Shown: in pieces, positions 18,952 to 39,098 of the stretch | Layout: each line of letters opens with the position of its first letter | Numbering within the stretch: the first letter of the stretch is position 1 | IMG/VR virus record: IMGVR_UViG_3300015050_000800 | Location: 1 to 41,569 of that record | From: a virus | Lineage: Duplodnaviria; Caudoviricetes | Strand: one strand, 5' to 3' | DNA: 41,569 nucleotides | Program-made: the position numbers and the translations under genes | The notes under the pieces: model-generated | Told to the model about the DNA's origin: nothing | What the model saw: only the letters and a program-made list of their open reading frames with translations | Databases searched by the model: none

Positions 18952-19295
18952 GGTTCAGAGAAGATGCTCGCAATGAGGGATCGTGGACTACGAGGGGTCA
19001 CATACTGAGTTTACTCCTGCATTAGCCAACACCTCTGCAAAGGGAGGCCTTGGTTTTTTTACTGCCCCTAATGCGGGTGACGCACTCACGGCATAAGCAT
19101 CGTCATAAATTTTTTCGACATCGAACGGCTCTGTCAGCAGTCCATTGATGTAAAATCTGGTCTGCGCTACGGAGCGATGCCGCCAATCAGAGTCGGGCGA
19201 TGTCTGCTCCCAAAACTCTATCGAGATAAACTCAGTTCGTGCGCTCTCAGTCATGTTTCGATTCCGGCTTTGCGAGTGGAGCCTTTTTCTGAACC
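18952..19295. mobile_element. Cassette 1, bounded by inverted bipartite repeats (18952-19013 and 19227-19295)
   Basis: Outer GGTTCAGA..CTCGCAA / TTGCGAG..TCTGAACC; inner ACTGAGTTTA / TAAACTCAGT (perfect 10-bp inverted pair). Confidence 0.7.
18988..19254 (-). CDS. Hypothetical protein (cassette cargo)
   Basis: Start and stop both lie within the repeat copies. Confidence 0.55.
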   Translation of the reverse strand: MTESARTEFISIEFWEQTSPDSDWRHRSVAQTRFYINGLLTEPFDVEKIYDDAYAVSASPALGAVKKPRPPFAEVLANAGVNSVCDPS

Positions 19296-19438
19296 CCCTC
19301 TAATACTCGGGTGAAGTCGGAGAGGGCTTTTTCACTAACGCCATTCACATAGGTGACACCTTTGTCAATGTAGATGTCCGGCCATTCCTTCATCACCAGC
19401 TTAGGTAATGGTTTAGTTGGGGGTTTTGTATCCACCAT
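19247..19438 (-). CDS. Hypothetical protein
   Basis: AGGAGAAGG RBS; C-terminus is encoded by a repeat copy. Confidence 0.55.
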   Translation of the reverse strand: MVDTKPPTKPLPKLVMKEWPDIYIDKGVTYVNGVSEKALSDFTRVLEGVQKKAPLAKPESKHD

Positions 19439-19464
19439 CCTCTCCTATAGTTCTAATAGGGGTT

Positions 19465-19846
19465 GTTCAGAAAGAGACTCACCGCAGAAAGCGGGCAGAG
19501 AGCAGAACGGGTCATTCGGCGAGTGAGTTAACGGTCGCCGCACTCTCGATTCACCGCATCGATCAAAGCGCGCAATGACTTGCCGGATATTGTGCCTACA
19601 TATACTTGGTAGCGCATGACCCTCTCGTGGAATTTTCCATCCTCAAACCAGACGTAGCCGTAGTGATCCCACGCATAATGCGGCATCCAATGCGTGCCCT
19701 TGCGAAGCTCCTTGTCGGCCCCCTCTGGCATTTCATGGTCGCTGTTGCTGTAGCTGAAATCAGCTTCGGTTCGATCTTCTAGATCACTCAGTACTGATGT
19801 CTCGCTCATCCTCTATCTCTCCTTCTGCGGTGAACCTCTTCTGAAC
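19465..19846. mobile_element. Cassette 2, bounded by inverted bipartite repeats (19465-19530 and 19786-19846)
   Basis: GTTCAGAAAGAGACTCACCGCAGAA vs reverse complement GTTCAGAAGAGGTTCACCGCAGAA; inner AGTGAGT / ACTCAGT. Confidence 0.75.
19528..19809 (-). CDS. Hypothetical protein (cassette cargo)
   Basis: GAGG RBS; N-terminal MSETSVLSD comes from the repeat. Confidence 0.6.
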   Translation of the reverse strand: MSETSVLSDLEDRTEADFSYSNSDHEMPEGADKELRKGTHWMPHYAWDHYGYVWFEDGKFHERVMRYQVYVGTISGKSLRALIDAVNRECGDR

Positions 19847-19878
19847 CCATCATCCTCCAAGAACGGATAGAGAACAAG

Positions 19879-20061
19879 AGGTGCGGGAGCGGCCCAAAAT
19901 ACCGCTTACGAATCAATCGGCCCGTTATGCCCGCACCTTGTTGCAACGCACTGATTTACCTAATAGGTTCCACATCTTCTTCCCCCACCAACATTAAAAA
20001 GGGCAGTTGAAAAGACTGCCCTTTTTACGTTCCGGCCCGCACCTTTCCCTTGGGTGCGGGA
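19879..20061. other. Putative attP region with integrase arm-type sites
   Basis: Non-coding gap downstream of int; CCCGCACC(T) near 19930 and 20036, and inverted copies near 19880 and 20053; AT-richer centre. Confidence 0.6.
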
Positions 20062-21104
20062 ATAGCGGTTCTCTTTTTGGCCTTCCGCGACAGCTTCTCC
20101 ATGGCATCCGCCGCCAGCGCCTTACGGTCAGCCGAGCGCGTATAGAGCGATGCCATGCGGCCACCTTCCCAGCCGAATATAGCCTCTAGCTGAGGCACTG
20201 TAGCGCCCCTGTTTGCGGCGTGTGTGGCGGCGGCCTTGCGTAGCCCATGCGCGGATTTGCGAATCCCGGCGGCTCGACAGGCTTCCCTGAACACCGTTCC
20301 CAACGATTCCTTGGCAAAGTGCTGCCCGTCGTCCGTGGCGATGATAGCCAGTTCCCCGAGCTTCGTTGCCGCCATTGTCTCGGCAAGGTCTGGCAGGATT
20401 GGGATTGTCACCCGCATCCCGTTCTTCTGTGTGTCCAACGTAATGACGCCATTCTTGATGTGCTGCTTACCAAGCGCTGCGGCGTCACCGCGACGAAGTC
20501 CGGTATAAAGGAACACGTCCAGCATCAGGCGCTCCCGCGTCCCGCGCGGCCATCGCTTCTCATAGGCGGCGATTTCCTCATCCGTCCAAACCGGGAAGCC
20601 GCTTGTCTTGGCCTTCTTGGCGATCACGCCTTGGGTCGGGTCAATCTTGGCAAGCTCGTTATCGACGGCCCATTTGAAGATCCCGCGCATCGTGTCGAGG
20701 AAGTGCCGCGCTTGAGACGGCGTTTTCTTCCGACGCTCGCACCCTTGCTTGATTGATTGCCGGTTGATGCTCGACAGCGGCTCCTTGCCCGCTGACGCCA
20801 GCACAGGCTTAAGGATGTTCTCGCGCTGCTTGCGGGTTGCCAGCGAAAGATCGGCCCAGACGGTAGATTGCCGATAGAGCATCACAAGCCATTCCAGCGA
20901 ACCCCTGACGGCCTCTTTGGTCTTTACCGGGCGCTCGCCTTTGATGGCGAGTTCATATGCTTCATTGAACGCCTCTGTGCCGTATTCGGCCTTGAGGCGA
21001 ATCCTGGGGCCGCGATTGACGCGGACATACCAAACGAGCTTCCCGTGGCGGGTTGTCTCATGGTGCAAGTGCGGGGGTCTGGGGCGAGGCATAAGGTCCA
21101 TCAC
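20025..21104 (-). CDS. int: Tyrosine integrase
   Basis: YTGLRRGD (R), QK, SAHGLRK (HxxR), FGW, and catalytic Y in SLYTR. Confidence 0.95.
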   Translation of the reverse strand: MMDLMPRPRPPHLHHETTRHGKLVWYVRVNRGPRIRLKAEYGTEAFNEAYELAIKGERPVKTKEAVRGSLEWLVMLYRQSTVWADLSLATRKQRENILKPVLASAGKEPLSSINRQSIKQGCERRKKTPSQARHFLDTMRGIFKWAVDNELAKIDPTQGVIAKKAKTSGFPVWTDEEIAAYEKRWPRGTRERLMLDVFLYTGLRRGDAAALGKQHIKNGVITLDTQKNGMRVTIPILPDLAETMAATKLGELAIIATDDGQHFAKESLGTVFREACRAAGIRKSAHGLRKAAATHAANRGATVPQLEAIFGWEGGRMASLYTRSADRKALAADAMEKLSRKAKKRTAIPAPKGKVRAGT

Positions 21105-21286
21105 AGGACGACCTCGCGCTTAGGCGCAACGGGAACAGAATAGGTATCGTCTGTGGATAGCGGCGACAAGCCGATCCGAATGGTGCCGTCTGATAGAATC
21201 TCGACCGTTCCCGCACCAGCAGCTTTCGCCGCGCGAATAGCCTTCGCGACGGTCGCCTGCGTGATGAGGGAAGGGCGGCGGGACAC
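21101..21286 (-). CDS. Excisionase-like small basic protein
   Basis: 61 aa, overlaps the int start; ITQATVAKAIRAAK motif typical of alphaproteobacterial prophage xis genes. Confidence 0.65.
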   Translation of the reverse strand: MSRRPSLITQATVAKAIRAAKAAGAGTVEILSDGTIRIGLSPLSTDDTYSVPVAPKREVVL

Positions 21287-21435
21287 TCAGTCAGCCTTCT
21301 CTCGTTGAAGGGGAGTGACTGCTTTCTGCGGTCTTGGCTGCTCCTGAATCTATCTCCCCCGTCTTAGAAATTGGATCAGCAGAAACTCCACTCACGAGGC
21401 CGACATTCCCCGGAGCATCAGCATTCGTATCCGCA
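21285..21435. repeat. Back-to-back repeat copies (21285-21343 and 21373-21435)
   Basis: ACTCAGT..GCTTTCTGCGGTCTTGGCTGCTC, a spacer of about 30 bp, then GGATCAGCAGAAACTCCACTCAC..GTATCCGCA. Confidence 0.7.
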
Positions 21436-21881
21436 ACCGCTGGCGGTGCAGGAAGTAGCTGCCAATACGTTGCGACACCGCAGAGGCCGTGCCACGTCCA
21501 CCCGCCGCCGTTGTGGTCGATCCAGTAAGCCTCATGAGCGGCTTCCCATCCTTCGGCGACAGGGTCGTCGCTATACTTCGCATGGGCGTGGACGAACCAA
21601 ATCAAGATTCGAGTGCCGTCTCTCGGTGCAGTCTCAATAGGTTGCCACGCCGTCTCTCTTACCCGGTGTAGGGAGGCGCGAAGCTTTTCGATCTCGTCGT
21701 TCAGCCGCTTTTCCATCCCGCGCGTCGCTGACAGATGGTCACGATCAGCCGCTTGCAGTTCAGCTATGAGGGTGGCTGCTTCGCGACACTGCTCACCAAG
21801 AGGGATGTCGGAACCATCGGCGCGACGAGACGCATCGGCGATACGAACCAACCTCTCCACTATCCCGCTCTCTTTTATCAT
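21291..21881 (-). CDS. DUF551-like domain protein (mosaic)
   Basis: WQPIETAPRDGTRIL..TYWQLLPAPP. Confidence 0.7.
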   Translation of the reverse strand: MIKESGIVERLVRIADASRRADGSDIPLGEQCREAATLIAELQAADRDHLSATRGMEKRLNDEIEKLRASLHRVRETAWQPIETAPRDGTRILIWFVHAHAKYSDDPVAEGWEAAHEAYWIDHNGGGWTWHGLCGVATYWQLLPAPPAVADTNADAPGNVGLVSGVSADPISKTGEIDSGAAKTAESSHSPSTREG

Positions 21882-21891
21882 GAAGGAGTCC

Positions 21892-21951
21892 TTTTCAGTG
21901 AAGATGTGAACAAAGCTCTTGTCCCGACTTCATTCAGTTCCGCGACTGAGA
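21892..21951. repeat. Repeat copy (partner not found)
   Basis: TTTCAGTGAAGA..CAAAGC, then TTCCGCGACTGAG 53 bp in. Confidence 0.55.
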
Positions 21952-21954
21952 CCG

Positions 21955-22161
21955 CTATTTCGGGAGCGCTGCGATCATTCGTTCGATGCCCTCGCGGACA
22001 ACCCGCCAGTGTCCGATGTCCACCCGCCAGCAATTCTCGATGGTGAACGTCGGTGCAGAGGTCTCATTTTCCTGCCGCACCTCGACTTCCAAGGCATAAC
22101 CCGATCCATCGCTGTACGGCGCAAAGCCGGTTTTCATTTCGATCAGCGGGTTACCCATCAT
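21955..22161 (-). CDS. Hypothetical protein
   Basis: TAAGGAG RBS. Confidence 0.6.
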   Translation of the reverse strand: MMGNPLIEMKTGFAPYSDGSGYALEVEVRQENETSAPTFTIENCWRVDIGHWRVVREGIERMIAALPK

Positions 22162-22222
22162 CCATCTCCTTATTTCTGTATCAGGTGGAAGAAATTATAA
22201 TCAGCAAAGACGGCACGAGGAA

Positions 22223-22432
22223 TCATCCCCCGCCATCGGTTCGACGCGTCTCCGCATCCGTTGGCTCACCAGTAATGACCTCGATAAGCGCCTCTTCGTA
22301 ACTCAGCCCGCGAACATTCTCGCAATCCTCAAGTGCATCTCCAGCCGTGAGGTTAGGTTTCCCGCACAGATAACAAGTTCCAGCGAAGGCCTGTCCTTTT
22401 GGCGATGTGCGATTGATATGATGTTTAGTCAT
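22223..22432 (-). CDS. Hypothetical protein (RTSPKG..CYLC)
   Basis: ORF with CxxC; C-terminus TDAETRR is repeat-encoded. Confidence 0.55.
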   Translation of the reverse strand: MTKHHINRTSPKGQAFAGTCYLCGKPNLTAGDALEDCENVRGLSYEEALIEVITGEPTDAETRRTDGGG

Positions 22433-22676
22433 TTTCGCCCCGCGACAGTGAGGCGTGCTCATCGTATCCGCGCATCAGGGCGTTGGCGAACCATGTGGTC
22501 ATGATTTCTTCGTCGGCGTCCCATCCGTGTTTCTTCCTAGCCACGCAAAAAGCCTTAGCCCAATCTCGGGCATCGAAAGAAGGGAGCGGCCAATCCGGCC
22601 TTTCATGCGGAGGAGTATTCGCGTGTTCGCGTTCAAACTCCGCGTGGTCGCCGTTGAGAATGATTGGGTACGCCAT
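22425..22676 (-). CDS. Hypothetical protein (DARDWAKAF..WFANALMRG)
   Basis: GGAG RBS before ATG 22676. Confidence 0.6.
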   Translation of the reverse strand: MAYPIILNGDHAEFEREHANTPPHERPDWPLPSFDARDWAKAFCVARKKHGWDADEEIMTTWFANALMRGYDEHASLSRGEND

Positions 22677-22727
22677 CTTAAATCTCCGAAGCGGTTGAAG
22701 TACGTGGGTCAAATGTTCTGTGTCGAT

Positions 22728-23711
22728 TTATGCTTCGTGAGTGGAGCGATCTTCTGAACCCATCTTCCCCGGCCCCTGTAGGTCGAGGGCGGCTCCCGAC
22801 TGTTCTATGAGAGCGGCGGGGGCGGCAAACATATGTTTGGCAGCGAACCGAAGCGCAGCAGCACACGCCTGAAACGTGCGGACATAGCTGACGTTCGGTC
22901 CCGCCGCTAAACCGTTACGTGCTGCTTTGTCGTGATCGAAGGCACGCTCGTTAAACTCTTTCGCCGTGAAAGGGCCAGTATAGCCGTGACCATCAATCGG
23001 CACCGCAGCCGGGGACGGGGATGCAAGCGCGGCCCGCATAAGATTTTCGGCGTATTCCTTCACGCCATCATATCGCCCGCGCTCATAAGCGTTTGTCAGA
23101 ACGTCCTTGCCCGTTTTGGGCCGCGCCATCCGCACCAGTTCTCTCAACCCTTCCACAGGGGGTTGTGGTGCAGCCAAGACGGCAGGAGGCGTAGATTCAG
23201 AACGATTGCGGGCATCCGTATCCGCATCCGGCAACGTTGGAAGTAGCCTCCAGTGTGTTGGAGGGCTGGGCCACATGACGCCTTCGCCGTTCGTCGGCAG
23301 GCGATCATCTTTGTGCCGAAAGCGAACTATGCGCGTGGCACCCCATCCCTTGGTTGTCGCGCACGCTAAAAACCAAGTCCCATCCCTCGGAGCCGTCTCA
23401 ATCAGTTGCCAGCCGGCAGTCTCAGTCGCAGATGCTTCCGTTCTGCTCGACGTAGGCTTTGCAGTTTGAGTCTCTTTCTGAACCCGCTCCCCGGCTGAGG
23501 TGTCTGCGGGGGTGGCGCGGGTGTTCCATTGCTTCACTGAATCCTCTTTAAGCCCGGCTGTCGTGATGGGGCCGAAACAATCATCGCTCGAGCAATAAAT
23601 TTGCCCCATGATCCCGCGCGGGTGACCATTATCTTTCGCTTCTCCGCCGCAGAACGGACACGGCTTCAACGCCTCCGCTACAGCTAGACTTGCTTCGGGG
23701 GTGTTGGTCAT
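22728..23711 (-). CDS. Mosaic protein: Lar-like Zn domain, DUF551-like domain and unknown domain
   Basis: LKPCPFCGGEA..C..C..WNTR, then WQLIETAPRDGT; domains are separated by in-frame repeat copies. Confidence 0.72.
   Translation of the reverse strand: MTNTPEASLAVAEALKPCPFCGGEAKDNGHPRGIMGQIYCSSDDCFGPITTAGLKEDSVKQWNTRATPADTSAGERVQKETQTAKPTSSRTEASATETAGWQLIETAPRDGTWFLACATTKGWGATRIVRFRHKDDRLPTNGEGVMWPSPPTHWRLLPTLPDADTDARNRSESTPPAVLAAPQPPVEGLRELVRMARPKTGKDVLTNAYERGRYDGVKEYAENLMRAALASPSPAAVPIDGHGYTGPFTAKEFNERAFDHDKAARNGLAAGPNVSYVRTFQACAAALRFAAKHMFAAPAALIEQSGAALDLQGPGKMGSEDRSTHEA
23168..23484. mobile_element. In-frame domain cassette (DUF551-like), bounded by repeats 23168-23226 and 23420-23484
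   Basis: GTGCAGCCAAGACGGCAGGAGG..GTATCCGCA / TCTCAGT..TGAGTCTCTTTCTGAACC; the right copy shares GTTCAGAAAGAGACTCA and GAGCAGAACGG with the 19465 copy. Confidence 0.72.
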
Positions 23712-23715
23712 GGCT

Positions 23716-23982
23716 TCACCAATTCAGGTCTGAGGAAAGCAGCGGGCGGCCCATCGGGCGGTCGAGTTGGCCGCTCTCGCAAGCGACATCGAGCGCCTCG
23801 ATACGAGATACGAACCTTCCCGCGTCGGTGTAGAAACCTTCATCATCGCCAGCGGTGGCCTTGTACGGCTCCGGGTCGCCAAGCTGCGCGCGAAGCTGCC
23901 AGTGCGATTTGTGGCCGTGGTGGACTTCGCCACGCCGCTTAATGGCAACGCTTACTAATCTCTCGGGTGCGTTTTTGCTCAC
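23716..23982 (-). CDS. Conserved-type phage hypothetical protein (EGFYTDAGRFVSRIEA)
   Basis: GGAGG RBS; coupled to its neighbours. Confidence 0.65.
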   Translation of the reverse strand: MSKNAPERLVSVAIKRRGEVHHGHKSHWQLRAQLGDPEPYKATAGDDEGFYTDAGRFVSRIEALDVACESGQLDRPMGRPLLSSDLNW

Positions 23983-24512
23983 AGCTTTCCTCCAAGGGAG
24001 AGAGTTGGATCAGCAAAGCCCGCAGGTGTATTCGATCCCGCGCTATCGGCTCGACGCGTCTCCGCGTTGTCTAGCGTGCTTGGCAGATAGCCATTAGCCC
24101 AACCGTAATTGATCGCCGCGATCATATGCTCGACGGCCTGGTGTCGTCCGTCGCAAGGAAGCCCGTTGTTTGGACAGACGCCACCATGATCGGCGCAATC
24201 ACGACAGCGCCCGCCGTAGGCGTTGATGTATTCAACTGTTATGTAATCGTCGGAAATTTTCTTCGGTGATCGACTTAGACCCTGAGCGGACTGCTCATTG
24301 CAGTGCCCGCCATCTGCGGATTTTGTCTGCCCCGAACCATCTGGGAGGGAAGCGGCGAGGCGGTGCCATTCTCGCAACGGTTTGACGATGACAGACCCGC
24401 CGCAGTTGATGCCAATGCCGCCGCTTTCCGTGACGTGAATGGAATCGCAGTAAGATGTTTCGTTGGCCGCGAGCCAGATAACTCGATCAGTGTTTTTCGT
24501 TCCGCCTGTCAT
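23979..24512 (-). CDS. Two-domain mosaic hypothetical protein (C-terminal CRDC..CP..C domain)
   Basis: ATG 24512 overlaps the upstream stop; repeat-encoded linker. Confidence 0.6.
   Translation of the reverse strand: MTGGTKNTDRVIWLAANETSYCDSIHVTESGGIGINCGGSVIVKPLREWHRLAASLPDGSGQTKSADGGHCNEQSAQGLSRSPKKISDDYITVEYINAYGGRCRDCADHGGVCPNNGLPCDGRHQAVEHMIAAINYGWANGYLPSTLDNAETRRADSAGSNTPAGFADPTLSLGGKL
24007..24332. mobile_element. In-frame domain cassette, bounded by repeats 24007-24066 and 24273-24332
   Basis: GGATCAGCAAAGCCCGCAG..GTCTCCGC / ACTTAGA..ATCTGCGGATTTTGTCTGCCC. Confidence 0.6.
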
Positions 24513-24772
24513 GAGGAGGTGCCTTTGGTTACCTTTGCGAGAGCCGCGCGGCCTGCGTTGGTGATAAAATACCCGCCCCACGCATCGGCGCTCTTGTATT
24601 CGCGATACTCAGCAAAGCCCATTTCGCAAAGTTGTGCGCAGCTTTCAACGGGACCATGCTTATGCACCGAGGGGCCGAACAGCCCGCGATTTTCGATACC
24701 TACACGCTCCATCCAAATCAGATCGCTGATCTGAGCTTCGCTCAACCCAATCTCCCCATCCTTCCTTGTCAT
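24509..24772 (-). CDS. Winged-helix-like hypothetical protein
   Basis: LSEAQ..L..MGFAE..YFITNAGRAAL. Confidence 0.6.
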   Translation of the reverse strand: MTRKDGEIGLSEAQISDLIWMERVGIENRGLFGPSVHKHGPVESCAQLCEMGFAEYREYKSADAWGGYFITNAGRAALAKVTKGTSS

Positions 24773-25206: not shown

Positions 25207-25239
25207 GCTGTTATCTCCTGCCTTGTGTGGGGGGAATTT

Positions 25240-25794
25240 GGTGAAGCAAAGATCGCAGAAAGCTGTCATCGAACAGAACAGTTCATTCCGCGACTGAGTT
25301 CACTTCTTCGATTTCAGCTTGTCGGTTTCTTCCTTGATCCATGTCTTGAGCAGATCGACGCCGGGGTTCACAACGTCCTGCACGGCGCTGGAACTGATTG
25401 CGCGCTCGCCCATTTCAGAACCGGCGATGAGAAGCATTGTTTGGCGGGAAGGAATAATCGTTGCGAGCGCCGCGCCGCCGACGAGAACCACGGCGGATAA
25501 CTTCAAGCCATGACGCATCTTGCCGCTGATGTATTTGTCTTCTGCGGTATACTTATTTTCATCAAAGCCTTCGCCTAGATAAAAAGCCATAAGAGGTATG
25601 CCGATGACGGCAACGCCAATAATCGCAAGGGCGATACCGCCAGCAATGACGTCGCGCGCGCCCTCGACAACCTGCGTCAGATAGATAAACCAAGAGAGAT
25701 TGTTCATTGCGTAGCCCCTTCGCTGTTAAACTCAGTACGCGCGGCAGATGTTCTGTCGCGGTGATTGCATTGTGAGTGGAGTTTCTTCTGATCC
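25240..25794. mobile_element. Cassette bounded by repeats 25240-25300 and 25727-25794
   Basis: AAAGATCGCAGAAAGC..CGCGACTGAGTT / TAAACTCAGT..GTGAGTGGAGTTTCTTCTGATCC. Confidence 0.75.
25300..25707 (-). CDS. Two-TM membrane protein (IPS..TM..IAGSE family)
   Basis: Two hydrophobic segments; fills the cassette exactly. Confidence 0.7.
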   Translation of the reverse strand: MNNLSWFIYLTQVVEGARDVIAGGIALAIIGVAVIGIPLMAFYLGEGFDENKYTAEDKYISGKMRHGLKLSAVVLVGGAALATIIPSRQTMLLIAGSEMGERAISSSAVQDVVNPGVDLLKTWIKEETDKLKSKK

Positions 25795-25852
25795 CGCTCT
25801 CTCCACCATTCTTCTAGGAGGGCATCAGCTTCTTGCTGACTGGTGAGAGTCA

Positions 25853-26164: not shown

Positions 26165-26568
26165 TTCCCCTCCTTGAGTGAGGAGAGGGTGGCGTCAACC
26201 TTGCGGAGCAGAATTACAGCGTTGGCAAAGCTCGCAATGATGGCGGGGCCAGTCGCCTTTACGTCAGGGTTGGTGAGGTCGGATAGGAGAGTTTGGCACT
26301 CTTCCAACGCCTTCACAGCCGCTGCGATCTTCGCTTCGTTCGCTTCATGGGAGTTCACGGCTTTGACGATGAAGGCGGCGTTGGCGCGTTTGGCGCGCGG
26401 GGAAATTGTTGATGACTTTCCGCAATCCGCCACTGTCTGCCCGTCAATACCAACGACGTAGACTCCATCCGTTTCCCAAAGCAGTGGCGTATGCCCACCC
26501 ACTACCTGAGCATCCTTTGGGGAGGAGTTGTTCAGTGAAGGTTCGCAGAAGGATGGATCGCGGCTCAT
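26161..26568 (-). CDS. Hypothetical protein (HTP.W..ANAAFIVKAVNSHE family)
   Basis: Typical phage early-gene motif; start lies inside a repeat copy. Confidence 0.65.
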   Translation of the reverse strand: MSRDPSFCEPSLNNSSPKDAQVVGGHTPLLWETDGVYVVGIDGQTVADCGKSSTISPRAKRANAAFIVKAVNSHEANEAKIAAAVKALEECQTLLSDLTNPDVKATGPAIIASFANAVILLRKVDATLSSLKEGK

Positions 26569-26928
26569 AATGATGGTCCTCGCACTGAGTTAGGCAGGAA
26601 GCTGGCGGATAGCTTTGACTTCGCCGCCGAACTCAATCGAAGTCCCGTCATCTTGCGAGTGAACGGTGTCGATAAGCAGATCAACGCGGACCAGCACTTT
26701 GCCGCCGTCCCGGATGAGCTTCGCAAGCGCTCCGCGACCTTGCTTCACATCGATGATGGCGAAGTCTGATTTGAAATCAGGAACGGAGTGAACTGGGCGA
26801 GATGCCATTGCAGGACACCGAGTGATCGTTACTTTTTGCGCTCGCATCTGTTTTCCCCTTCGCTAAACTCAGTTTCGGAAGCGCCTGTTGGCCGCGTGGC
26901 TGGCCTTGTGACGATCCTTGGCTGAACC
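26530..26928. mobile_element. Cassette bounded by repeats 26530-26592 and 26864-26928
   Basis: GTTCAGTGAAGGTTCGCAGAAGG..CACTGAGTTA / TAAACTCAGT..CCTTGTGACGATCCTTGGCTGAACC. Confidence 0.75.
26590..26847 (-). CDS. Hypothetical protein (cassette cargo; first gene of the leftward operon)
   Basis: GAAGGGG RBS next to the inner box; stop codon TAA abuts the other inner box. Confidence 0.65.
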   Translation of the reverse strand: MRAQKVTITRCPAMASRPVHSVPDFKSDFAIIDVKQGRGALAKLIRDGGKVLVRVDLLIDTVHSQDDGTSIEFGGEVKAIRQLPA

Positions 26929-27743: not shown

Positions 27744-27977
27744 ATGGAAGCAAATCCGATCAAAGCTTATCGAGAGCGACAGATTCCGCCTTTGTCACAA
27801 GGCGAGTTTGGCGACCGGGTGGGTGTTACCCGCTTCACCGTGTTGCGATGGGAGAAAGGCGAACCCATCGACGAAAAGAAACTCCCCGCTGTCAGCAAGG
27901 AAATCGGCGTTCCGGCCAAGGAACTGCGCCGCGATCTTGTTGAGAAGCACGAGGAAATTTTCGGAGGTGCGCCATGA
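27744..27977 (+). CDS. Cro-like HTH regulator
   Basis: LSQGEFGDRVGVTRFTVLRWEKG HTH; probably a nearly leaderless mRNA. Confidence 0.82.
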   Translation: MEANPIKAYRERQIPPLSQGEFGDRVGVTRFTVLRWEKGEPIDEKKLPAVSKEIGVPAKELRRDLVEKHEEIFGGAP

Positions 27978-27982
27978 CCTCC

Positions 27983-28255
27983 TCAATTCAGAAACTTACT
28001 CCTCGGCGCAATGACCAGTCCTTTTGTTGGCGGCAGGATAACGTCGCGGGTTCGCGTGGCGGACACATAAGCTCCGTTCGCTGGCATAACCAATCTGATG
28101 ATTGCCACCTTGAGCAGATCGCCGTTTGCGCGCGAGGGAGGCTGGAGCCTGTAACCGACACATCGCAAGACGCCATCGGTCACATGGAAGTCGGTAAATC
28201 CGTCTGCAAAAAATTCTTGAACGGCGAACGGCTCAATTACGCTCTTATCACGCAT
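27983..28255 (-). CDS. Hypothetical protein antisense to the early right operon
   Basis: MRDKSVIEPFAVQEFFADG..; G-rich RBS. Confidence 0.5.
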   Translation of the reverse strand: MRDKSVIEPFAVQEFFADGFTDFHVTDGVLRCVGYRLQPPSRANGDLLKVAIIRLVMPANGAYVSATRTRDVILPPTKGLVIAPRSKFLN

Positions 28256-28352
28256 GATTACCCCCCGGCCTTGGCAATTCTCGATCATGACACAGCGGGA
28301 CAGGGAGTCACGGTAAATCATCGCGGCGTTGCGCTGGTGACTATTGATTCAA

Positions 28353-28388
28353 AAGCGGCAGAAGGCACGGGGCTACCTTCTGCCGCTT
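28353..28388. other. Perfect 13-bp hairpin
   Basis: AAGCGGCAGAAGG-N10-CCTTCTGCCGCTT. Confidence 0.7.
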
Positions 28389-28790
28389 CCGTTCATGTGA
28401 GCGGGGCAACTCACAATCACAACAATTCAAACCATGCCAAGACAAGCGCCAGCGCAATTCCTGCGGCGATAGCCAGCATCATCGCGGCTTTGTCTGACAT
28501 TGTTCAACGCAATCCGCGCAAGAACCATTTCAATCCAAAGTATGTGAGCGCGATTAGCATTGCTGCTCCGATAATCCACCACATGCGAACGCTCGTTTCG
28601 TTCGTTCTGCAATTCTCTCATTTAGATCAATCACGGTTGCTGACTTCCGCGCCAACGGTCGTCGCAACAAATTCTGTAGCTCCTCACTCGCGCGCCAACG
28701 CGGGTCATCGAGGATGTGTGTCAGGTCGATAGTTTCGTTCGTTACTCGCTTCATGCAGCCATTCAACAGCATGGAGCGATCAAAGTGGTG

Positions 28791-30709: not shown

Positions 30710-30888
30710 AAAACTACGTCACACCAGAGCTTGCCTTCCTGTCAGAGCCTCGTTTCGGAGAGGTCTACCTGAACATTGTGACGCTGGAGATGGGTCACAA
30801 GAAGATCAGGCTCACCCCATCGCACCTTTCAACGCTTGTAAGCGACGGCGCAAAGATGCTGCGGCCTTATGCGGAGGAGAGGGCTTGA
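30706..30888 (+). CDS. Hypothetical protein
   Basis: GGAGG RBS; TTGA coupling. Confidence 0.55.
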   Translation: MKNYVTPELAFLSEPRFGEVYLNIVTLEMGHKKIRLTPSHLSTLVSDGAKMLRPYAEERA

Positions 30889-31331
30889 GCAGTCAAGATT
30901 CGCAGAAAGCGATCAATGCGGCCAACACGCAAGGTCTCGCGACTGAGTTTGGCCTCATGGTGGACTATGCGCGTGCGGTGATCATCAACACGCCGTTTCC
31001 GCCGTCCACAAATAACCTTTTCATCAACGTGGCGAAGGGCCGTATTCCGTCCGCGCGGTATGCCGACTGGAAGCAAGACGCCGGTTGGGCACTCAAGGCG
31101 CAGCGCCCGAAGTCGATCAAGGGTCCGGTTGTCCTTCGCTATCAATTCCAGGAAGGCCAAGACCGCCGCAAGCGCGACATTGGCAATCTTGAAAAGGCCC
31201 CGACCGATTTGCTCGTTGAGCATGGCGTGATCGAGGCCGACGACAACACGATTGTGCGCGGGATCAGCTTGTCGTGGTCGAAGCACATTACCGGCGCGCG
31301 TGTCGAGATTATTCCAATTTCTAAAGCGTAA
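30885..31331 (+). CDS. rusA: RusA-family Holliday junction resolvase
   Basis: PPSTNNL, RDIGNLEK..DLL..GVIEADD. Confidence 0.88.
   Translation: MSSQDSQKAINAANTQGLATEFGLMVDYARAVIINTPFPPSTNNLFINVAKGRIPSARYADWKQDAGWALKAQRPKSIKGPVVLRYQFQEGQDRRKRDIGNLEKAPTDLLVEHGVIEADDNTIVRGISLSWSKHITGARVEIIPISKA
30887..30950 (+). repeat. Repeat copy forming the RusA N-terminus
   Basis: GAGCAGTCAAGATTCGCAGAAAGC, then CGCGACTGAGTTT 55 bp in. Confidence 0.72.
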
Positions 31332-31349
31332 CCGCACAGGGAGAGTGCA

Positions 31350-31583: not shown

Positions 31584-32364
31584 TCGCGCTGACCCTATTT
31601 CATCCGGCCCATTTACAGCCGGACATAACCGCCCACCAAGTCCGATTGAGCTTGCTGGCGGGACCATCGACGCCATGTCCGAGTTCATGAAGGACAACCC
31701 AGTCATCGCGGATGAGGAAGTCGCGCGCAAGGCTAAGCTGTTGTGCGACCGAGCCAAGGCCGCACTGGAGGAAATCGAACAGGAGCGCGACAAGTCAGTT
31801 CGTCCCCTGAACGAGAAGGTCGCGGAGATCAACGCCAAGTACAAGGCGTTGCACAATACAGACCCGAAGAAGCCCGGAACGTATGATCGTATCTTCGTTG
31901 AACTGAAATCGCGACTGGCGGCGTTCCTTCTCAAGCAAGAGGAGATTCGTCGGAAGGCTGCCGAGGCGGCTGCGGCTGCGGCAGAAGAGGCCGAGCGGAT
32001 TGCCCGTGAGGCTGATGAACGGGATAGGCAGGCCCGCGACAATGCCGCCGCTGGCGAGCTTGACGTGGACATTGTTGCCGTCACCCAGGAAGCCGACACA
32101 GCTTTCACCGAGTTTGAGAAAGCATCGCGATTTGCGGACCGTGCCGAGCGCGACACGAAGGTAAAGCTTGGCGGCGGGTTTGGGCGTGCTGCTTCGCTCC
32201 GCACTGTCGAGACCCTTCACCTCAATAGCTACAACCTTGCGATCAAGGCCATCGGCCCGCATCCGAAGATTGAGGAGGCCATTCTTGCGGCTGCTCGCGA
32301 GTACCGAAAGGCTCGCGGCGCATTGCCCGAAGGCGTCACCGCAACACAGGAGCGCAAGCTATGA
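31573..32364 (+). CDS. Coiled-coil recombination-module protein
   Basis: GHNRPP motif and long coiled coil; directly upstream of the annealase. Confidence 0.6.
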   Translation: MLLDRADPISSGPFTAGHNRPPSPIELAGGTIDAMSEFMKDNPVIADEEVARKAKLLCDRAKAALEEIEQERDKSVRPLNEKVAEINAKYKALHNTDPKKPGTYDRIFVELKSRLAAFLLKQEEIRRKAAEAAAAAAEEAERIAREADERDRQARDNAAAGELDVDIVAVTQEADTAFTEFEKASRFADRAERDTKVKLGGGFGRAASLRTVETLHLNSYNLAIKAIGPHPKIEEAILAAAREYRKARGALPEGVTATQERKL

Positions 32365-33059
32365 CCTTTAATGAAGATCAAGTAGCGGCGCTCAAGGCCC
32401 CGCTTTCGTCGTCGCTGGTGAAGTCACGCAAGCAGGGTGGCCGGGACGTTAGTTATATCGAAGGCTGGAAAGCTGTCGAAGAAGCGAACCGCATCTTTGG
32501 CTTTGATGGCTGGACCCGCGAAACCGTTGAGATGAAATGTGTCTCTGAGGGTGAGCGGGCCATCGGCCAGCGCGGCGATACCGGCTTTGGCGTGACATAC
32601 ATCGTCAAGGTCCGCGTCATGGTTGGCAACGTATGTCGTGAGGGTTGCGGTGCTGGTCACGGTATCGACCGAGACTTGGGCCAGGCTCATGAGAGCGCGT
32701 TGAAGGAAGCCGAAACCGACGCCATGAAGCGCGCGTTGATGACGTTCGGCAACCCATTCGGGCTGGCTCTGTACGACAAAACGCAAGCTAATGTTTCTGA
32801 CGACACCCCGAGTAAGCCGCGACCGGCGCAGAAGCAGTCAATCCTGCCGGACGACTTCAATGCCCGCGTTGAATACATGGTGACGTGCCGGGAAACCATT
32901 GCCGCATTCACCGACGTTGAGAAGCTGGGCGCGTGGTGGAACTCGGATGAGCAGAAGGAGGCTCGCCGTCAACATCAACTCGAAACTCACCAAGTAGACG
33001 CGCTCAAACAGGCCGTCATGAATCGTCGTGACGAACTTAGCAAAAAGGAAGCAGCATGA
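32361..33059 (+). CDS. Rad52/Rad22-family single-strand annealing protein (Sak)
   Basis: SYIEGW..ANRIFGFDGW..KEAETDAMKRA..FGNPFGL.LY. Confidence 0.92.
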   Translation: MTFNEDQVAALKAPLSSSLVKSRKQGGRDVSYIEGWKAVEEANRIFGFDGWTRETVEMKCVSEGERAIGQRGDTGFGVTYIVKVRVMVGNVCREGCGAGHGIDRDLGQAHESALKEAETDAMKRALMTFGNPFGLALYDKTQANVSDDTPSKPRPAQKQSILPDDFNARVEYMVTCRETIAAFTDVEKLGAWWNSDEQKEARRQHQLETHQVDALKQAVMNRRDELSKKEAA

Positions 33060-34029: not shown

Positions 34030-34113
34030 ACAGTGGGGATAGCTCGCCATTGTCATGGCGCGGCTCGACGCGAATATAGGACCGTAAGTTTCAACCGATT
34101 TGGGGCGCATCAC

Positions 34114-34305: not shown

Positions 34306-35009
34306 GCGAGCGCGGCTTCATTAGCATCAGCCGCAAGATATTTGATAATCCGCTCCTTCGGGATGCGGACTACTTCCGCGCATGGGTATGGCTCATTTGT
34401 GAGGCCTGCTGGAAACCAGCCCGAGAGCGCATTCAGACCGGCAGGTCGTTCACTATGGTTGATCTTGAGCGCGGGCAGTTGTCTCACGCCAGGAGCTTCA
34501 TCGCCAAGGCGCTCGATATGAGCGAGCAGCGCGTGAGGACGTTTTTAAATCATCTCGAAACCGAGGGGATGATTAGCCGCACAACCAACCAAGGACAGAT
34601 GGTCATAACCATCTGCAAATACGACGAATATCAGATTGATCCCCTAGCAACTAACCAGCGATCAGGGGGGGCAACTAACCAGCAACTAACCAGCGATCAA
34701 CCAGAACTAAATAAGGGTAATAAGGGAATAAAAGATAGTAGCGCGTCCGCGCCGATCAAATTTCCAAAACCAAGGGCAACAACAATCGCTGACGGCTTTG
34801 CGCCTGACGCGGCGATGCTTCGCTTTGCGGCGGATCGTGGATTCGCTGGTGTTGAAGTCACCCGCATGTTCGAGAAATTTGCCAACCATCACCGGGCGAA
34901 GGGTTCCAGATTTGTGGACTGGGCTGCCGCATGGCGCACATGGGTCGGCAATCAGGTCGATTTCAATTCTCAACGTCCGCAGCGGCGGGCAGGAACGCCG
35001 GATGTTTGA
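34302..35009 (+). CDS. Replication initiator protein
   Basis: GFISISRKI..LERGQ..SEQRVRTFL winged helix; internal iterons; C-terminal DWAAAWRTW. Confidence 0.82.
   Translation: MSERGFISISRKIFDNPLLRDADYFRAWVWLICEACWKPARERIQTGRSFTMVDLERGQLSHARSFIAKALDMSEQRVRTFLNHLETEGMISRTTNQGQMVITICKYDEYQIDPLATNQRSGGATNQQLTSDQPELNKGNKGIKDSSASAPIKFPKPRATTIADGFAPDAAMLRFAADRGFAGVEVTRMFEKFANHHRAKGSRFVDWAAAWRTWVGNQVDFNSQRPQRRAGTPDV
34647..34733 (+). repeat. Replication origin: iterons plus A-rich tract
   Basis: GCAACTAACCAGC at 34647, 34671 and 34682, followed by AATAAGGG repeats, inside the initiator gene (lambda O-like layout). Confidence 0.75.
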
Positions 35010-35011
35010 TC

Positions 35012-35314
35012 ATGGACGCTGGCGAAATCTTGAATCACTTCCGCATCCGGGTTCGGTCAACGAAGGCCGGAAACCAGAAGGCGGTTTGTCCCGAGTGTTC
35101 GCACAAGCGAAAGCACAAATCGGACCCGTGCTTATCGGTGCTGATCAACGGCGAGGGCGTCTGTTTCAATTGCAAGAACTGCGGGCACAAAGGGGGATTG
35201 TACTATGACGGTAAGCCCAAAAGCGGAAGCATGGTTCGAGGCTCGGGCGATAGACCCGGAGATCGTCGCACGCATGGGGATTTACTCAGGGCGTCGCGAG
35301 CTGGTTGGCGATGA
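35012..35314 (+). CDS. Primase zinc-binding domain as a separate ORF
   Basis: CPEC..DPCLSV..CKNCGHKGG. Confidence 0.75.
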   Translation: MDAGEILNHFRIRVRSTKAGNQKAVCPECSHKRKHKSDPCLSVLINGEGVCFNCKNCGHKGGLYYDGKPKSGSMVRGSGDRPGDRRTHGDLLRASRAGWR

Positions 35315-36746
35315 AGCCCAAGTGATCCCCGATGCCGCCGGGGACATCCTTGTGTTTCCGTATTACGAGGCCGGGGCGGATGTTTCGGCTAAGTATCGCG
35401 GGCGACCGCGCCCAGACGGATCAAAGGTGTTCTGGCAGCGCAAGGATGGCCGCAAGACGTTCTACAACGCCGATGTGTTGGATGACCCGGCTCTGGTTGA
35501 TGGCACCGCTGCACTTGTGATCGTGGAGGGTGAGCCGGACTGTCTTGCGGTCCTGACGGCGGGCTATCCGTTTGTTGTGTCTGTACCTGATGGTGCACCG
35601 GCTGATCGCGATGCCAATGGCAAGCCTCTCGCGCCTGTGCCTGATGGTGCTGACGACATCGACCCCGACAATGACCTGAAGTATTCTTACATTCAGAACA
35701 ATTGGGATCGCCTGTCTAAGATCAAGCGGTTCATCCTTTTCACAGACAACGATGGACCCGGCCAGCGGTTGCGCGATGAGCTTGCAAGGCGGCTGGGCCG
35801 CGTGCGCTGCGGCTTTGTGGTGTATCCAGATTGCGCTGGTAAAAAGCAGGACGCAAACGAAATTCTTGTCCAGCATGGACCAGAGGCGATCACGTCGATG
35901 ATCGCGAAGGCCCAGCCGTTCCCGGTTAAGGGCATCTATCACATCAACGATTTTCCGACGCTGGAGCGTCCGCGCACGGTGTCGAGCGGTTGGGGCCGTT
36001 TGGACTTGCCCGTTCAATCCGGCAATTGCGGCCTGATGCTGACAACCGGAATTTTCATGGTGGTGCTGGGCAAGCCTGGATCTGGCAAATCAACCTGGAC
36101 GTTGCAACTCGCTTACAACATGGCTCGCTCTCAGAATTGGAATGTCGGGCTGGGTTCATTCGAGGTTTTGCCGGTGCCATATGTGCGGGACATCCTTCGC
36201 TCGCACTTCATCGGTGCGGGGCGCGATGATTGGTCACCAATCAAGGTTCACGCCGCAGACCAGTTTATCCAGCGAAAGTTCACGTTCTTTCATATCGACG
36301 CCAGAACCGATGAGTCCGAGCAGTCGCTTGAATGGCTGTTAGATAAGGCAGCGGACGCCGTGGTTCGCGATGGCATCAAAATGCTGATCGTGGACCCGTG
36401 GAACGAGCTTGAACATGCGCGTCGCCGGGATGAAACAGAGACGCAATACACGGCGAGGGCGATACGCGCGCTGAAGAAGTTCGCGATGGCCTATGATGTA
36501 TTGGTCATCATCGTGGTTCACCCGACCAAGAGCGGCGGGGATAAGCCTCAAGGCGAATTGTCCCTATATGACGCTGATGGTTCGGCGCATTGGGTAAACA
36601 AGCCTGACATTGGGATCGTGGTCGAGCGTGACGACGCCAGCGGCCAATGCATCATTCATGGCCGAAAGTTCAGATTTTCATTCTTAGGACGTAAGGGATC
36701 AACCGGGTTTGTTTATGACCCTAAAACGGAGACGTTGAGTCAATGA
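35205..36746 (+). CDS. TOPRIM primase-SF4 helicase (T7 gp4/Twinkle-like)
   Basis: IVEGEPD, SVPDGA, DNDGPG, QDANE; Walker A GKPGSGKST; IVDPWN, VVHPTK. Confidence 0.92.
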   Translation: MTVSPKAEAWFEARAIDPEIVARMGIYSGRRELVGDEAQVIPDAAGDILVFPYYEAGADVSAKYRGRPRPDGSKVFWQRKDGRKTFYNADVLDDPALVDGTAALVIVEGEPDCLAVLTAGYPFVVSVPDGAPADRDANGKPLAPVPDGADDIDPDNDLKYSYIQNNWDRLSKIKRFILFTDNDGPGQRLRDELARRLGRVRCGFVVYPDCAGKKQDANEILVQHGPEAITSMIAKAQPFPVKGIYHINDFPTLERPRTVSSGWGRLDLPVQSGNCGLMLTTGIFMVVLGKPGSGKSTWTLQLAYNMARSQNWNVGLGSFEVLPVPYVRDILRSHFIGAGRDDWSPIKVHAADQFIQRKFTFFHIDARTDESEQSLEWLLDKAADAVVRDGIKMLIVDPWNELEHARRRDETETQYTARAIRALKKFAMAYDVLVIIVVHPTKSGGDKPQGELSLYDADGSAHWVNKPDIGIVVERDDASGQCIIHGRKFRFSFLGRKGSTGFVYDPKTETLSQ

Positions 36747-36844
36747 GCAAGCTGATGGAATACATCCGCAAATGGATGGCTAGTGGTCCTTGTCCTCACG
36801 GCTTTGCTAGGCCGGGGTATTGTAGTGAATGTAATTTTGATTGA
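36743..36844 (+). CDS. 33-aa Cys/His peptide (not in the ORF track)
   Basis: MSKLMEYIRKWMASGPCPHGFARPGYCSECNFD; ATGA-coupled. Confidence 0.45.
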   Translation: MSKLMEYIRKWMASGPCPHGFARPGYCSECNFD

Positions 36845-37375
36845 GCAGAAAAGACCGCACAAAGCCTAAATCGAAAACAACAACTGAACACACGAACTGA
36901 GTGGAGCGAGAATAAATGAGCATTCAGACAAAGCGAATTTCAGAAGTAGCGCGCGGTCCGTTTCTTTTTTGCAAGGAAACTTGGTCGATGGATGGTAGCG
37001 ACCCCGTCGATATGGACGCAGTATACAACGCTAACGGTGATTATGTCGGTGATGTGAAGTGCGCCGAAGAGCTTGAGAAGCGCGGCATATCACCAGAGAA
37101 GCGGACACCAACATCAAACGTTTGCTCAATCGGCTTCAGTGAGCGTGAGCAAAAGTGGTTCGGCTGGTCACACCGAGCGATCTACGGGTTCAAGGTTGGC
37201 GACGTGGTGAAGGAGGGCGATTGTGCTGCCGACAGTCTGCCTGCTGGGTTTGAAGCGAAGACCATGGATGACGCCAAGGAAATGGCTAAGGCGTTCGCTG
37301 CTTCGGTGTCCTAACTCACTCGCGGGACGGGGCATCACGTCCGCGATTTATGCTTTCTGCGAATCTTTTCTGAAC
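36843..37375. mobile_element. Cassette bounded by repeats 36843-36902 and 37312-37375
   Basis: GAGCAGAAAAGACCGCACAAAG..ACTGAGT / TAACTCACTCGC..GCTTTCTGCGAATCTTTTCTGAAC. Confidence 0.75.
36916..37314 (+). CDS. Conserved-type phage hypothetical protein (CSIGFSEREQKWFGWSHRA), cassette cargo
   Basis: Fills the cassette; stop codon abuts the inner box. Confidence 0.7.
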   Translation: MSIQTKRISEVARGPFLFCKETWSMDGSDPVDMDAVYNANGDYVGDVKCAEELEKRGISPEKRTPTSNVCSIGFSEREQKWFGWSHRAIYGFKVGDVVKEGDCAADSLPAGFEAKTMDDAKEMAKAFAASVS

Positions 37376-37397
37376 ACTCATCACCGGGGCAAACCAC

Positions 37398-37946
37398 ATG
37401 GCATGGTATATCGCGATTACGAATCCAAACTGTCACCGCCGCGCCGAGAATGGCCTAGCCAGTCTTGGTTACCAGGCGTTCTGGCCTAAGTGCCGGAAAT
37501 GGGCCTCTCATGCCCGCGTGAAGGTGGCGAAGGAATATCCGATCCTAGGGCGCTATCTGTTCATCAACGTGCCTGATGGGAATTTCTACGCCGTGCGGAA
37601 TGTCGATGGGATCGAGGCGCTACTAACGGGCGATGACCGCGCGCCGGTTTCCGTCTCAGAAACAACGGTCTGGGATTTCCGGGAGCGGTATCTCGCTGGC
37701 GAGTGGGATTTTGTCCGCGAGCGTCGCCCGGTGTTTGGGTGGAATAGAAAGAAGCAACGAAATGTTCTGATTGGCTACGAGGATAACCCGCCCTTGCCGC
37801 AAGGCGCGCGGGTCAGGATCATGGAAGGCGAGTTTTCGGAGCTACTTACCGTTGTGCGCGGGTTCCAGAACGGCAAGGTCAAGTTCCTGCCGCCGGGCAA
37901 GAGCAAGTTCTTCTTCACGCGAGAAGACAATGTGAGGGCGGCGTGA
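37398..37946 (+). CDS. NusG-family transcription antiterminator
   Basis: WYIAIT..PILGRYLFI..V..V.GI NGN domain and KOW GARVRIMEGEF; located in the Q position. Confidence 0.85.
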   Translation: MAWYIAITNPNCHRRAENGLASLGYQAFWPKCRKWASHARVKVAKEYPILGRYLFINVPDGNFYAVRNVDGIEALLTGDDRAPVSVSETTVWDFRERYLAGEWDFVRERRPVFGWNRKKQRNVLIGYEDNPPLPQGARVRIMEGEFSELLTVVRGFQNGKVKFLPPGKSKFFFTREDNVRAA

Positions 37947-38128
37947 TGGACGCTGCTGACATCAATCGCCGGATAGAGCTGGAGCGAAAAGATGCCTCGC
38001 GAAAGGTGCTGGAAGAGGCAATCAAATCCATTGAGGGATTGGAGACGGTCTACCGGAATGATATATATCGAAAGGCTTGGAAGGTGGCGGCGCAATCAAT
38101 TCGGACCATGATTTTGGGGATCAAATAG
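37946..38128 (+). CDS. Hypothetical protein
   Basis: TGATG coupling. Confidence 0.55.
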   Translation: MDAADINRRIELERKDASRKVLEEAIKSIEGLETVYRNDIYRKAWKVAAQSIRTMILGIK

Positions 38129-38574
38129 TGGCAAGAGTCAGACCGTGCGAATTGTATCGGCATTTCGACAGAGAAGGCACGCTTCTTTACGTCGGGATTT
38201 CGTATAATTCAGTCGAGCGTTTGATGAAGGGGCATAAGCAGAATGCTCTTTGGTTCGATCAGGTCACGAAGATAGAGATAGAAAGATTTCCGTCACGGTC
38301 AGAGGCGCTGCGGGCTGAGAAGGAGGCAATCAAGACTGATCGCCCGCGCCACAATATTTGGACGGACACAAGGCGCGGCATCAAGTGTCGTGATGGCGAG
38401 GAACAGCAAGAGATTGATCGGTTAATCGCTCTTATTGAGGCGCGCGGATATTCTATGCGCAAGAACTCATGTTTGAACGTAGCGCAGGCGGCGTGGAGAG
38501 CAATCGACGCGGGCGATGAGCCAGAGGAGTATTTAACCCGGCGTTTATCGACGCCAAGGGCGGTGCCGGGTTAG
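38128..38574 (+). CDS. GIY-YIG-like nuclease
   Basis: LYRHFDREGTLLYVGIS..R..H..EKEAI..P.HN. Confidence 0.75.
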   Translation: MARVRPCELYRHFDREGTLLYVGISYNSVERLMKGHKQNALWFDQVTKIEIERFPSRSEALRAEKEAIKTDRPRHNIWTDTRRGIKCRDGEEQQEIDRLIALIEARGYSMRKNSCLNVAQAAWRAIDAGDEPEEYLTRRLSTPRAVPG

Positions 38575-38633
38575 TTTCATCGCAGATGCCGGTCCTCGTT
38601 TCACCCGCAGGGCGGCTTGTGTCTTTCAGAGCC

Positions 38634-38826
38634 AATGGGGAACCACGCTCGATCAGGCCCTAATAAGGCTGGCCCCATTTGAGGCCGTGGTGACTGGCGG
38701 GAAAGACCGCCCACAGTTTCACAGTTCGAGCAGCGGCGCTCCCATGTGCCGACGTGATCAACAATCCCGTTATCCCCTTAACGAAGAGATCGCATGTAGC
38801 GGCCTTTCGAGGGGTGCTGCTGCTCG
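38634..38826 (+). ncRNA. Structured late-leader RNA (candidate)
   Basis: Three consecutive stems, including a 16-bp stem (38727-38742 with 38811-38826) containing three G-U pairs. Confidence 0.5.
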
Positions 38827-38836
38827 GAGCCTGATT

Positions 38837-39098
38837 GATTCAGAAAAGATCGCAGAAGGCTGACAATGAGTGAAGCTCCGGCATCTGTACTGAGTGATCC
38901 TCAGTACATCATTGCTTCTCCGTCATTTATCGAGCAGTTGCATTTAGCGTCGGATCGCTTTGGGATCTACCGAGAGCGCAGACTGCTGGCTCGGCACTTG
39001 CCGTTCGTTCGAGAGTACCGAGGCGAAGAATGGTGGCTCACTCAGTAATCATCTCTCGTTGTCCGCATTCCCCGCTTTCTGGGAGTCTTGCCTGAGCC
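38837..39098. mobile_element. Cassette bounded by repeats 38837-38895 and 39040-39098
   Basis: GATTCAGAAAAGATCGCAGAAGG..ACTGAGTGA / TCACTCAGT..CCCGCTTTCTGGGAGTCTTGCCTGAGCC. Confidence 0.72.
38866..39048 (+). CDS. Hypothetical protein (cassette cargo)
   Basis: N-terminal MSEAPASVLSD resembles MSETSVLSD of ORF 19528-19809. Confidence 0.5.
   Translation: MSEAPASVLSDPQYIIASPSFIEQLHLASDRFGIYRERRLLARHLPFVREYRGEEWWLTQ

Follow-up and report, generated by a model that had tools for sequence, protein, structure and literature searches.

How a phage places a new small gene with exact edges is a long-open question, to which the usual answer is random recombination plus selection. The question is raised by the virus record IMGVR_UViG_3300015050_000800, of which we analyzed a stretch of 41,569 nucleotides (nt), referred to as a whole as the window. 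Here, a defined short sequence, a unit of about 60 bp, marks the edges at many slots, and a cultured host genome has 17 copies of this unit in one prophage span. The units form a family confined to phage accessory DNA. They encode start and stop codons, and the genes or gene pieces held between them, hereafter the cargo, turn over at the inner end of the unit.

Repeated units facing inward across small slots

Each unit has an outer box followed by a middle motif and, about 50-59 nt further in than the outer box, an inner box of 7 nt. The middle motif (columns 20-30 of the alignment of units, A1) carries as much information as the inner box, both representing the maximum of the unit, and the three motifs keep a near-fixed spacing while the intervening bases drift. 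The window harbors 22 copies, of which 18 form nine inward-facing pairs and four are solo (21343, 21373, 21892 and 30887). The pairs measure 262-563 bp from outer to outer box and 144-436 bp between inner boxes. Five copies (21373, 22198, 22760, 23168 and 24007) have a variant inner box. Among the 16 window units that have the canonical box, likeness averages 62%, and the longest stretch of exact identity has a median of 8 nt and a maximum of 16 nt. The units, with two of the open reading frames (ORFs) that they enclose, are listed here by position and strand.

18952..19010, plus: unit, downstream end of slot A; its inner box (19004-19010) and the stop region of the cargo overlap
18988..19254, minus: slot A ORF, a unit-encoded leader followed by a small orphan gene
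19230..19295, minus: unit, upstream end of slot A; the first 9 codons of ORF 18988-19254 lie within it
19465..19528, plus: unit, downstream end of slot B
19786..19846, minus: unit, upstream end of slot B; ribosome-binding-site (RBS)-like stretch and start codon of ORF 19528-19809
21285..21343, minus: solo unit; the stop of ORF 21291-21881 and the start of ORF 21101-21286, which precedes the integrase, both overlap its inner box
21373..21435, plus: solo unit, variant inner box; within ORF 21291-21881
21892..21951, plus: solo unit
22198..22256, plus: unit, downstream end of slot J, variant inner box; weakest copy
22695..22760, minus: unit, upstream end of slot J, variant inner box
23168..23226, plus: unit, downstream end of in-frame slot C, variant inner box
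23420..23484, minus: unit, upstream end of in-frame slot C; within the Lar-domain ORF 22728-23711
24007..24066, plus: unit, downstream end of in-frame slot D, variant inner box
24273..24332, minus: unit, upstream end of slot D
25240..25299, plus: unit, downstream end of slot E; the cargo stop codon adjoins the inner box
25730..25794, minus: unit, upstream end of slot E
26530..26590, plus: unit, downstream end of slot F
26867..26928, minus: unit, upstream end of slot F
30887..30948, plus: solo unit; in-frame fusion to the rusA 5' end, missing here in G001 and in comparison X1
36843..36902, plus: unit, upstream end of slot H
36916..37314, plus: slot H cargo, a Tad6-family protein, predicted anti-Thoeris (Pfam PF25188, E 8e-40)
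37314..37375, minus: unit, downstream end of slot H
38837..38895, plus: unit, upstream end of slot I; contains the start codon of ORF 38866-39048
39040..39098, minus: unit, downstream end of slot I; immediately 5' of the ATG of ORF 39099-39290

A strict two-box pattern occurred six times in the window, compared to a mean of 0.03 (maximum 1) in 200 dinucleotide shuffles, whereas a loose pattern was enriched only modestly (17 versus 5.1, maximum 12). With a profile built from the 22 copies, all of them scored at least 12 bits, and 50 shuffled genomes yielded one match of at least 10 bits. The structural and lysis genes are devoid of units, the profile maximum in 1-18.9 kb being 6.1 bits. When each copy was left out in turn, 15 of the 22 still reached at least 10 bits, three scored 4-7 bits and four were missed. 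Among the weak copies, 18952 and 21892 scored at least 19 bits with a profile enlarged by relatives, 19846 was recovered by the A1 profile, and the related genome G001 matches 21373 at 92% over 38 nt. Two others, 22760 and 24007, coincide with breakpoints in comparison X1 (see below), and the weakest copy, 22198, is supported by a 28/31 match to 24007.

The initial annotation, made from the same sequence, had listed 22 copies forming nine inward pairs of 0.26-0.56 kb and none in the structural or lysis genes. All copies were found at those coordinates, far above shuffle level, and the pairs and the unit-free region are as described. The annotation had also defined a two-box unit enclosing single genes. 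The outer and inner boxes hold, but the middle motif and the five variant inner boxes have to be added. Likewise, single-gene cargo is usual, but slot J (22198-22760) encloses two ORFs, and the pairs 23168-23484 (slot C) and 24007-24332 (slot D) lie in frame within the longer ORFs 22728-23711 and 23979-24581.

The units provide start or stop codons as well as RBS-like stretches, and the reading frames through them vary. A repeat acting at the protein level was rejected because these frames differ. By eye, many outer edges start with TG. We hold the slot architecture as such, facing adapters across small slots, with high confidence.

Cargo turnover at the inner boxes

We compared the slots between phages. 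At slot I, which lies before the terminase gene, the cargo of eight out of eight phages was mutually unmatched (blastn, E 0.01). Among 19 cross-genome pairs of units, identity ended within 9 nt past the inner box in 18; these pairs had been chosen for at least 75% identity over 20 nt outside the box, and one of the original 20 was dropped as duplicate DNA. Comparisons X1 and X2 concern an independent close relative that was not chosen on outside identity. Here, a joint from 36902 to 37314 shows that the Tad6 gene of slot H was swapped exactly box to box. Further breaks were located 1-4 nt inside the boxes at 19532, 22694, 23228, 23416, 24069 and 25301 (slots B, J, C at both ends, D and E). At slot F the break lies 16 nt inside the box, and at the upstream end of slot B it lies about 8 nt outside, the relative having its own box. 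The expectation of the initial annotation that the cargo of relatives would differ at box boundaries was thus borne out at slot I, in 18 of the 19 pairs and at the Tad6 gene.

Overall, 8 of the 41 breakpoints listed fall within 10 nt of a box edge, compared to 1.7 expected by position (p 2e-4). Three of these box breakpoints, 2-4 nt from boxes, are inside reading frames, and selection for gene ends is therefore no explanation there. At either end of rusA, the solo units occur as filled and as empty alleles, with the junction at the TG of the stop or start codon (by eye). One and the same cargo start was found at two slots: in X2 it lies at slot B, in G001 elsewhere, with a 26-nt match of which 15 nt are on the cargo side (by eye). 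In unit-free relatives with a common primase, NusG or integrase, the neighboring genes were unrelated, so that none of the paired slots has a defined empty allele.

Identity and origin of the cargo

The slots represent a list of candidate anti-defense or host-takeover genes, one being Tad6-like and others lying with Lar domains. According to a review, Tad6 binds Thoeris ThsB (PMC13728456), and we predict that the slot H cargo is an anti-Thoeris gene. Its homologs had no units in three out of three loci. In L176, slot H holds a methylase that is 52% identical to the unit-free methylase of the window. The slot A protein has four relatives that are free-standing proteins of 69-84 amino acids (aa), and the alignment begins at their residue 3-6. 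In G006, the slot A cargo (L096:15924-16612) consists of about 80 residues of the N-terminal domain of another phage's tail gene, fused to the same unit leader; this fragment might be a decoy of a virion protein. One relative, 82% identical, was found for the slot B protein. For the slot I protein, none of 67 candidate longer relatives passed.

The mosaic ORFs 21291-21881 and 22728-23711 have a common WQ.IETAPRDGT-type domain and both traverse units in frame. The latter begins with a Lar restriction-alleviation domain. This start and the shared domain suggest anti-restriction fusions made by domain shuffling.

Distribution of the units

The unit is present in 12 further phage or prophage records (G001, G002, G005, G006, G007, L159, L176, L190, L221, G183, G188 and G197), with those of G183, G188 and G197 sitting in prophage-like stretches. 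Duplicates (L177, L178, L104, L213, L158 and the G010 prophage, which overlaps G001 at 100%) were not counted. The known range of the family rests on protein-led searches and sampled genomes. Its distribution is patchy: among loci found through the terminase, many of which have little upstream DNA, the unit occurred in 4 of 80 viral loci, in 7 of 79 from other metagenomes and in 2 of 17 from genomes. In the 4.4-Mb genome G010, all 17 matches (E <=0.05) lie inside one 40-kb span. In the genus sample, 4 of 48 genomes had unit matches, every one beside phage genes or at a prophage edge. Partial matches only (E 0.004-0.04) were found in other genomes of the same taxonomic family, and, G010 aside, units were found in 0 of 150 genomes in both the order and the class sample. 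No unit match lay outside prophage-like DNA in the bacterial genomes searched. A host insertion sequence was rejected as the source of the units, given that the G010 matches are confined to one span and those in the genus to phage genes and prophage edges. The G183 prophage encodes a distant terminase (27%), has no matching head genes and carries two solo units; since this is a distant phage, units pass between phage types with accessory modules.

The region 36300-39800 had no blastn match among 50,697 records of cultured phages, and a single unit had none in phage records or 72,556 plasmids, although blastn with a single unit is insensitive. In the open-access literature, searched through titles and abstract openings, we found no description of such an arrangement. 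At G001:32752-32915, two units lie back to back, a few bases separating their outer edges. Just upstream of slot I, two relatives (L012:8530-8640 and L013:9010-9110) have another kind of insert, about 100 nt long and bounded by a perfect terminal inverted repeat, which was not seen there in the window.

Explanations for the exchange

The explanation that we favor, if tentatively and at slightly less than even confidence, is that the unit directs exchange at the inner box via a trans-acting enzyme. The ~60-bp units would be fixed adapters facing across small slots, and related phages would hold different genes or pieces between the inner boxes. Strand exchange at the inner box, or a few bases from it, likely performs the swap, likely directed by a protein that is probably supplied in trans and whose predicted binding sites are the outer and middle motifs. 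Two exchanges, one per end, would replace the cargo, as in the replacement of pdif modules (see below), and a single exchange would yield a solo junction such as that of the unit with rusA. Unit-free genes could be captured at look-alike sites and retained if read in frame. The units may first have spread as the ends of mobile elements, with the TG dinucleotide as outer edge. We infer unit-directed exchange from three observations taken together: copies from different slots are below the homology minimum of annealases, the motif spacing is kept, and phages that differ in annealase and integrase retain the same unit. For Red-beta, the minimum homology is 23-27 bp and the divergence limit about 17% (PMC3945230). 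The annealases of unit-bearing phages are Sak in the window and ERF (plus YqaJ) in G006, with none recognized in G001.

Alternatively, the exchange might be of the linker type and require no dedicated enzyme. Relic-repeat units would give Sak or ERF annealases short homology, alleles of the same slot would swap via flanking homology, new cargo would enter by microhomology at the boxes, and selection for reading frames would sharpen the edges. This is a serious competitor, although we lean against it. The window encodes a Rad52-type annealase, G006 both ERF and YqaJ, and such annealases tolerate divergence (PMC3945230). Moreover, a number of observations speak against unit-directed exchange. 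Per site, the breakpoints listed strike unit-free ORF ends (10 of 31) about as often as boxes (8 of 21) and as precisely, so this phage group also exchanges genes precisely without units. The units are mosaics: tandem arrays in L012, L063 and G006 (unit, cargo, inverted unit, half unit, cargo, inverted unit) join half-units at differing internal points through short matches within the unit, and crossovers are therefore not restricted to one base. Three of the five copies with a variant inner box still mark breakpoints, and conservation stops 1 nt past the inner box, leaving the cargo side without a conserved half-site. The slot A cargo is unaltered in X1/X2, and L176 and L190 have their slot H cargo in common. 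The contigs, which cannot reveal rare forms, showed neither excised circles nor inversions nor wholly empty slots. Finally, no recombinase is common to all unit-bearing phages: between the window and G001, two complete unit-rich genomes, RusA is the only shared recombinase, transposase or resolvase. They also share an RNase H-like exonuclease, which the part of G006 that is covered does not contain, and small proteins whose type is either regulatory or unknown. Against exchange by annealing, matches between units of different slots are mostly too short, although homologous recombination is possible between alleles of the same slot. Homology alone leaves unexplained the fixed-spacing motifs amid drifting bases and the inversion at both ends, and the in-frame breaks 2-4 nt from boxes also argue against it. 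The initial annotation had proposed a distinct cassette system. Its paired ends are indeed kept while cargo differs at the inner boxes, but no enzyme is common to all unit-bearing phages, the units mostly stay with the backbone and do not move with the cargo, and unit-free gene ends are broken as often per site; a dedicated exchange system is therefore likely rather than demonstrated.

It is improbable that the inward pairs are non-autonomous transposon-like elements that move whole with their cargo via a transposase from elsewhere, differences in cargo being independent insertions. The ~60-bp inverted ends, in which sub-motifs recur, the outer TG seen by eye and the filled and empty solo-unit alleles at both rusA ends would fit, and the family reached 22 places by some means. 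Against this, the ends persist while the cargo varies, and, as the initial annotation had noted, there is no clear target duplication: the longest word shared by the outer flanks averaged 2.0 nt in the nine own pairs and 2.3 nt in mismatched pairs, although later swaps of units could have erased a duplication. The two ends of a pair resembled each other no more than random ends did (20 pairs, p 0.82), and a long stem or co-evolving terminal inverted repeats were rejected on this basis. No pair of units surrounded a transposase in the loci and genomes searched, which are samples with few candidates scored per genome, and the bacterial matches are restricted to prophage-like DNA. It is quite improbable, too, that the units are regulatory or RNA-processing signals, such as sites for a phage regulator or translation modules, with adjacent turnover as ordinary mosaicism at gene boundaries. 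In agreement with such a role, units contain RBS-like stretches, starts and stops, and candidates for a GcrA-like and a CII-like regulator (29326 and 28716) are common to the window, G001 and G006. Yet units occur in both orientations relative to transcription, and the frames through them vary. No consensus pair of an RNA or single-strand DNA structure was found in 48 units, whose folding z was near -0.3 to -0.8 (z <=-2 in 3-7 of 48 per strand and molecule), and Rfam gave no match for units. In 18.5-27.5 kb, four promoter-like sites compare to 4.3 in shuffles, one of them overlapping a unit; this count is based on the sigma-70 consensus, from which alphaproteobacterial promoters may deviate. 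A promoter or terminator role was rejected, since the counts equal shuffle level.

Returning to unit-directed exchange, a more specific form of it is possible but doubtful: the unit would be a one-sided site of about 60 bp that sets the distance at which an enzyme cuts or exchanges, and facing pairs would take up arbitrary genes or fragments, adding start and stop. If true, such a new gene-capture machine would let phages sample anti-defense genes and new protein fusions. A one-sided exchange site and its enzyme would, if confirmed, provide a new recombination tool.

The window phage and its neighboring genes

The window represents a complete circular temperate phage of 41.4 kb with a terminal repeat of 123 nt. 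Portal, capsid and tail genes occupy 0-14.8 kb, the lysis genes 16-17 kb and the integrase 20.0-21.1 kb; a leftward accessory operon covers 21-27 kb. The phage also encodes rusA, a Sak-type annealase, a primase-helicase, a NusG-like gene and a terminase. Its nearest named relative, L101, lies within an Afipia clevelandensis genome, which suggests an Afipia-like host. Two of its genes are relevant to the exchange.

20025..21104, minus: tyrosine integrase; not common to G001
32361..33059, plus: Rad52/Sak-type annealase gene; candidate catalyst under exchange by annealing only

The integrase, the sole tyrosine recombinase of the window, scores as a phage integrase (Pfam, PHROGs), and since it is absent from G001 it is an improbable reader of the units. 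The 252-aa ORF 27974-28732 has no PHROGs, Pfam or NCBIfam family and a G001 counterpart 47% identical over 157 aa. It was rejected as a candidate enzyme (Atlas matches <0.85, no family) and, being poorly recognized by Atlas, may be a shadow frame. An FkbM-family methyltransferase (14782-15546, minus strand), moron-like and without units, lies between the tail and lysis genes. Adjoining the lysis genes is the RNase H-like exonuclease (17252-18478), which has a C-terminal zinc ribbon and 89% identity in G001.

Comparison with known systems

Integron attC sites are single-strand hairpins in tandem co-oriented arrays that are recombined by the integron integrase IntI. The slots resemble attC cassettes in their promoter-poor single-gene cargo, in a stop codon overlapping the site and in the anti-defense or adaptive nature of the cargo. 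However, the units form no hairpin, all nine window pairs are inverted, and no integron integrase was found, no IntI-specific model having been run. Compared to elements resembling miniature inverted-repeat transposable elements, the units lack matched ends within a pair and target duplication.

In mycobacteriophages, the element MPME1 has a constant length and sequence of 439 bp and occupies different sites (PMC3029335). Like MPME1 and MPME2, the paired units bound small elements with inverted repeats in temperate phages, without classical target duplication. Unlike in MPME1, the ends are constant per slot and the interior is variable. PeSL cassettes of the T4-type phages RB49 and phi1 carry sigma-70 promoters and stem-loops upstream of ORFs (PMC2839356). 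As with PeSLs, dispersed repeats are limited to variable regions beside orphan genes and are proposed sites of modular shuffling, but the units have no consensus promoter or stem-loop and stand inverted at both cargo ends. In lambdoid phages, linker or boundary sequences of the type proposed by Botstein are short conserved inter-module sequences that position incoming genes (PMC2839356). Here, too, a short conserved sequence lies at module edges and exchange takes place there. Unlike linkers, the units of a single family stand, inverted, at both ends of many slots, and between slots their sequences have diverged too far for homologous exchange to be efficient.

In the pdif (dif) modules of Acinetobacter plasmids, a XerC site, a 6-bp spacer and a XerD site form halves conserved on both sides of the crossover (PMC13141974). 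Such a two-sided Xer-type site is absent from the units, which by eye bear no likeness to the site table in that paper. The units, moreover, are about 60 bp long, are conserved on the backbone side only, encode starts and stops and reside in phages. Nevertheless, inversely oriented sites around accessory genes and the replacement of single modules between related replicons are features of both, and the supply of the pdif enzyme in trans is a likeness to the proposed exchange at units. Taken together, adapters and cargo turnover are, tentatively, best read as a boundary-directed module exchange that works like pdif modules and linkers without quite matching either.

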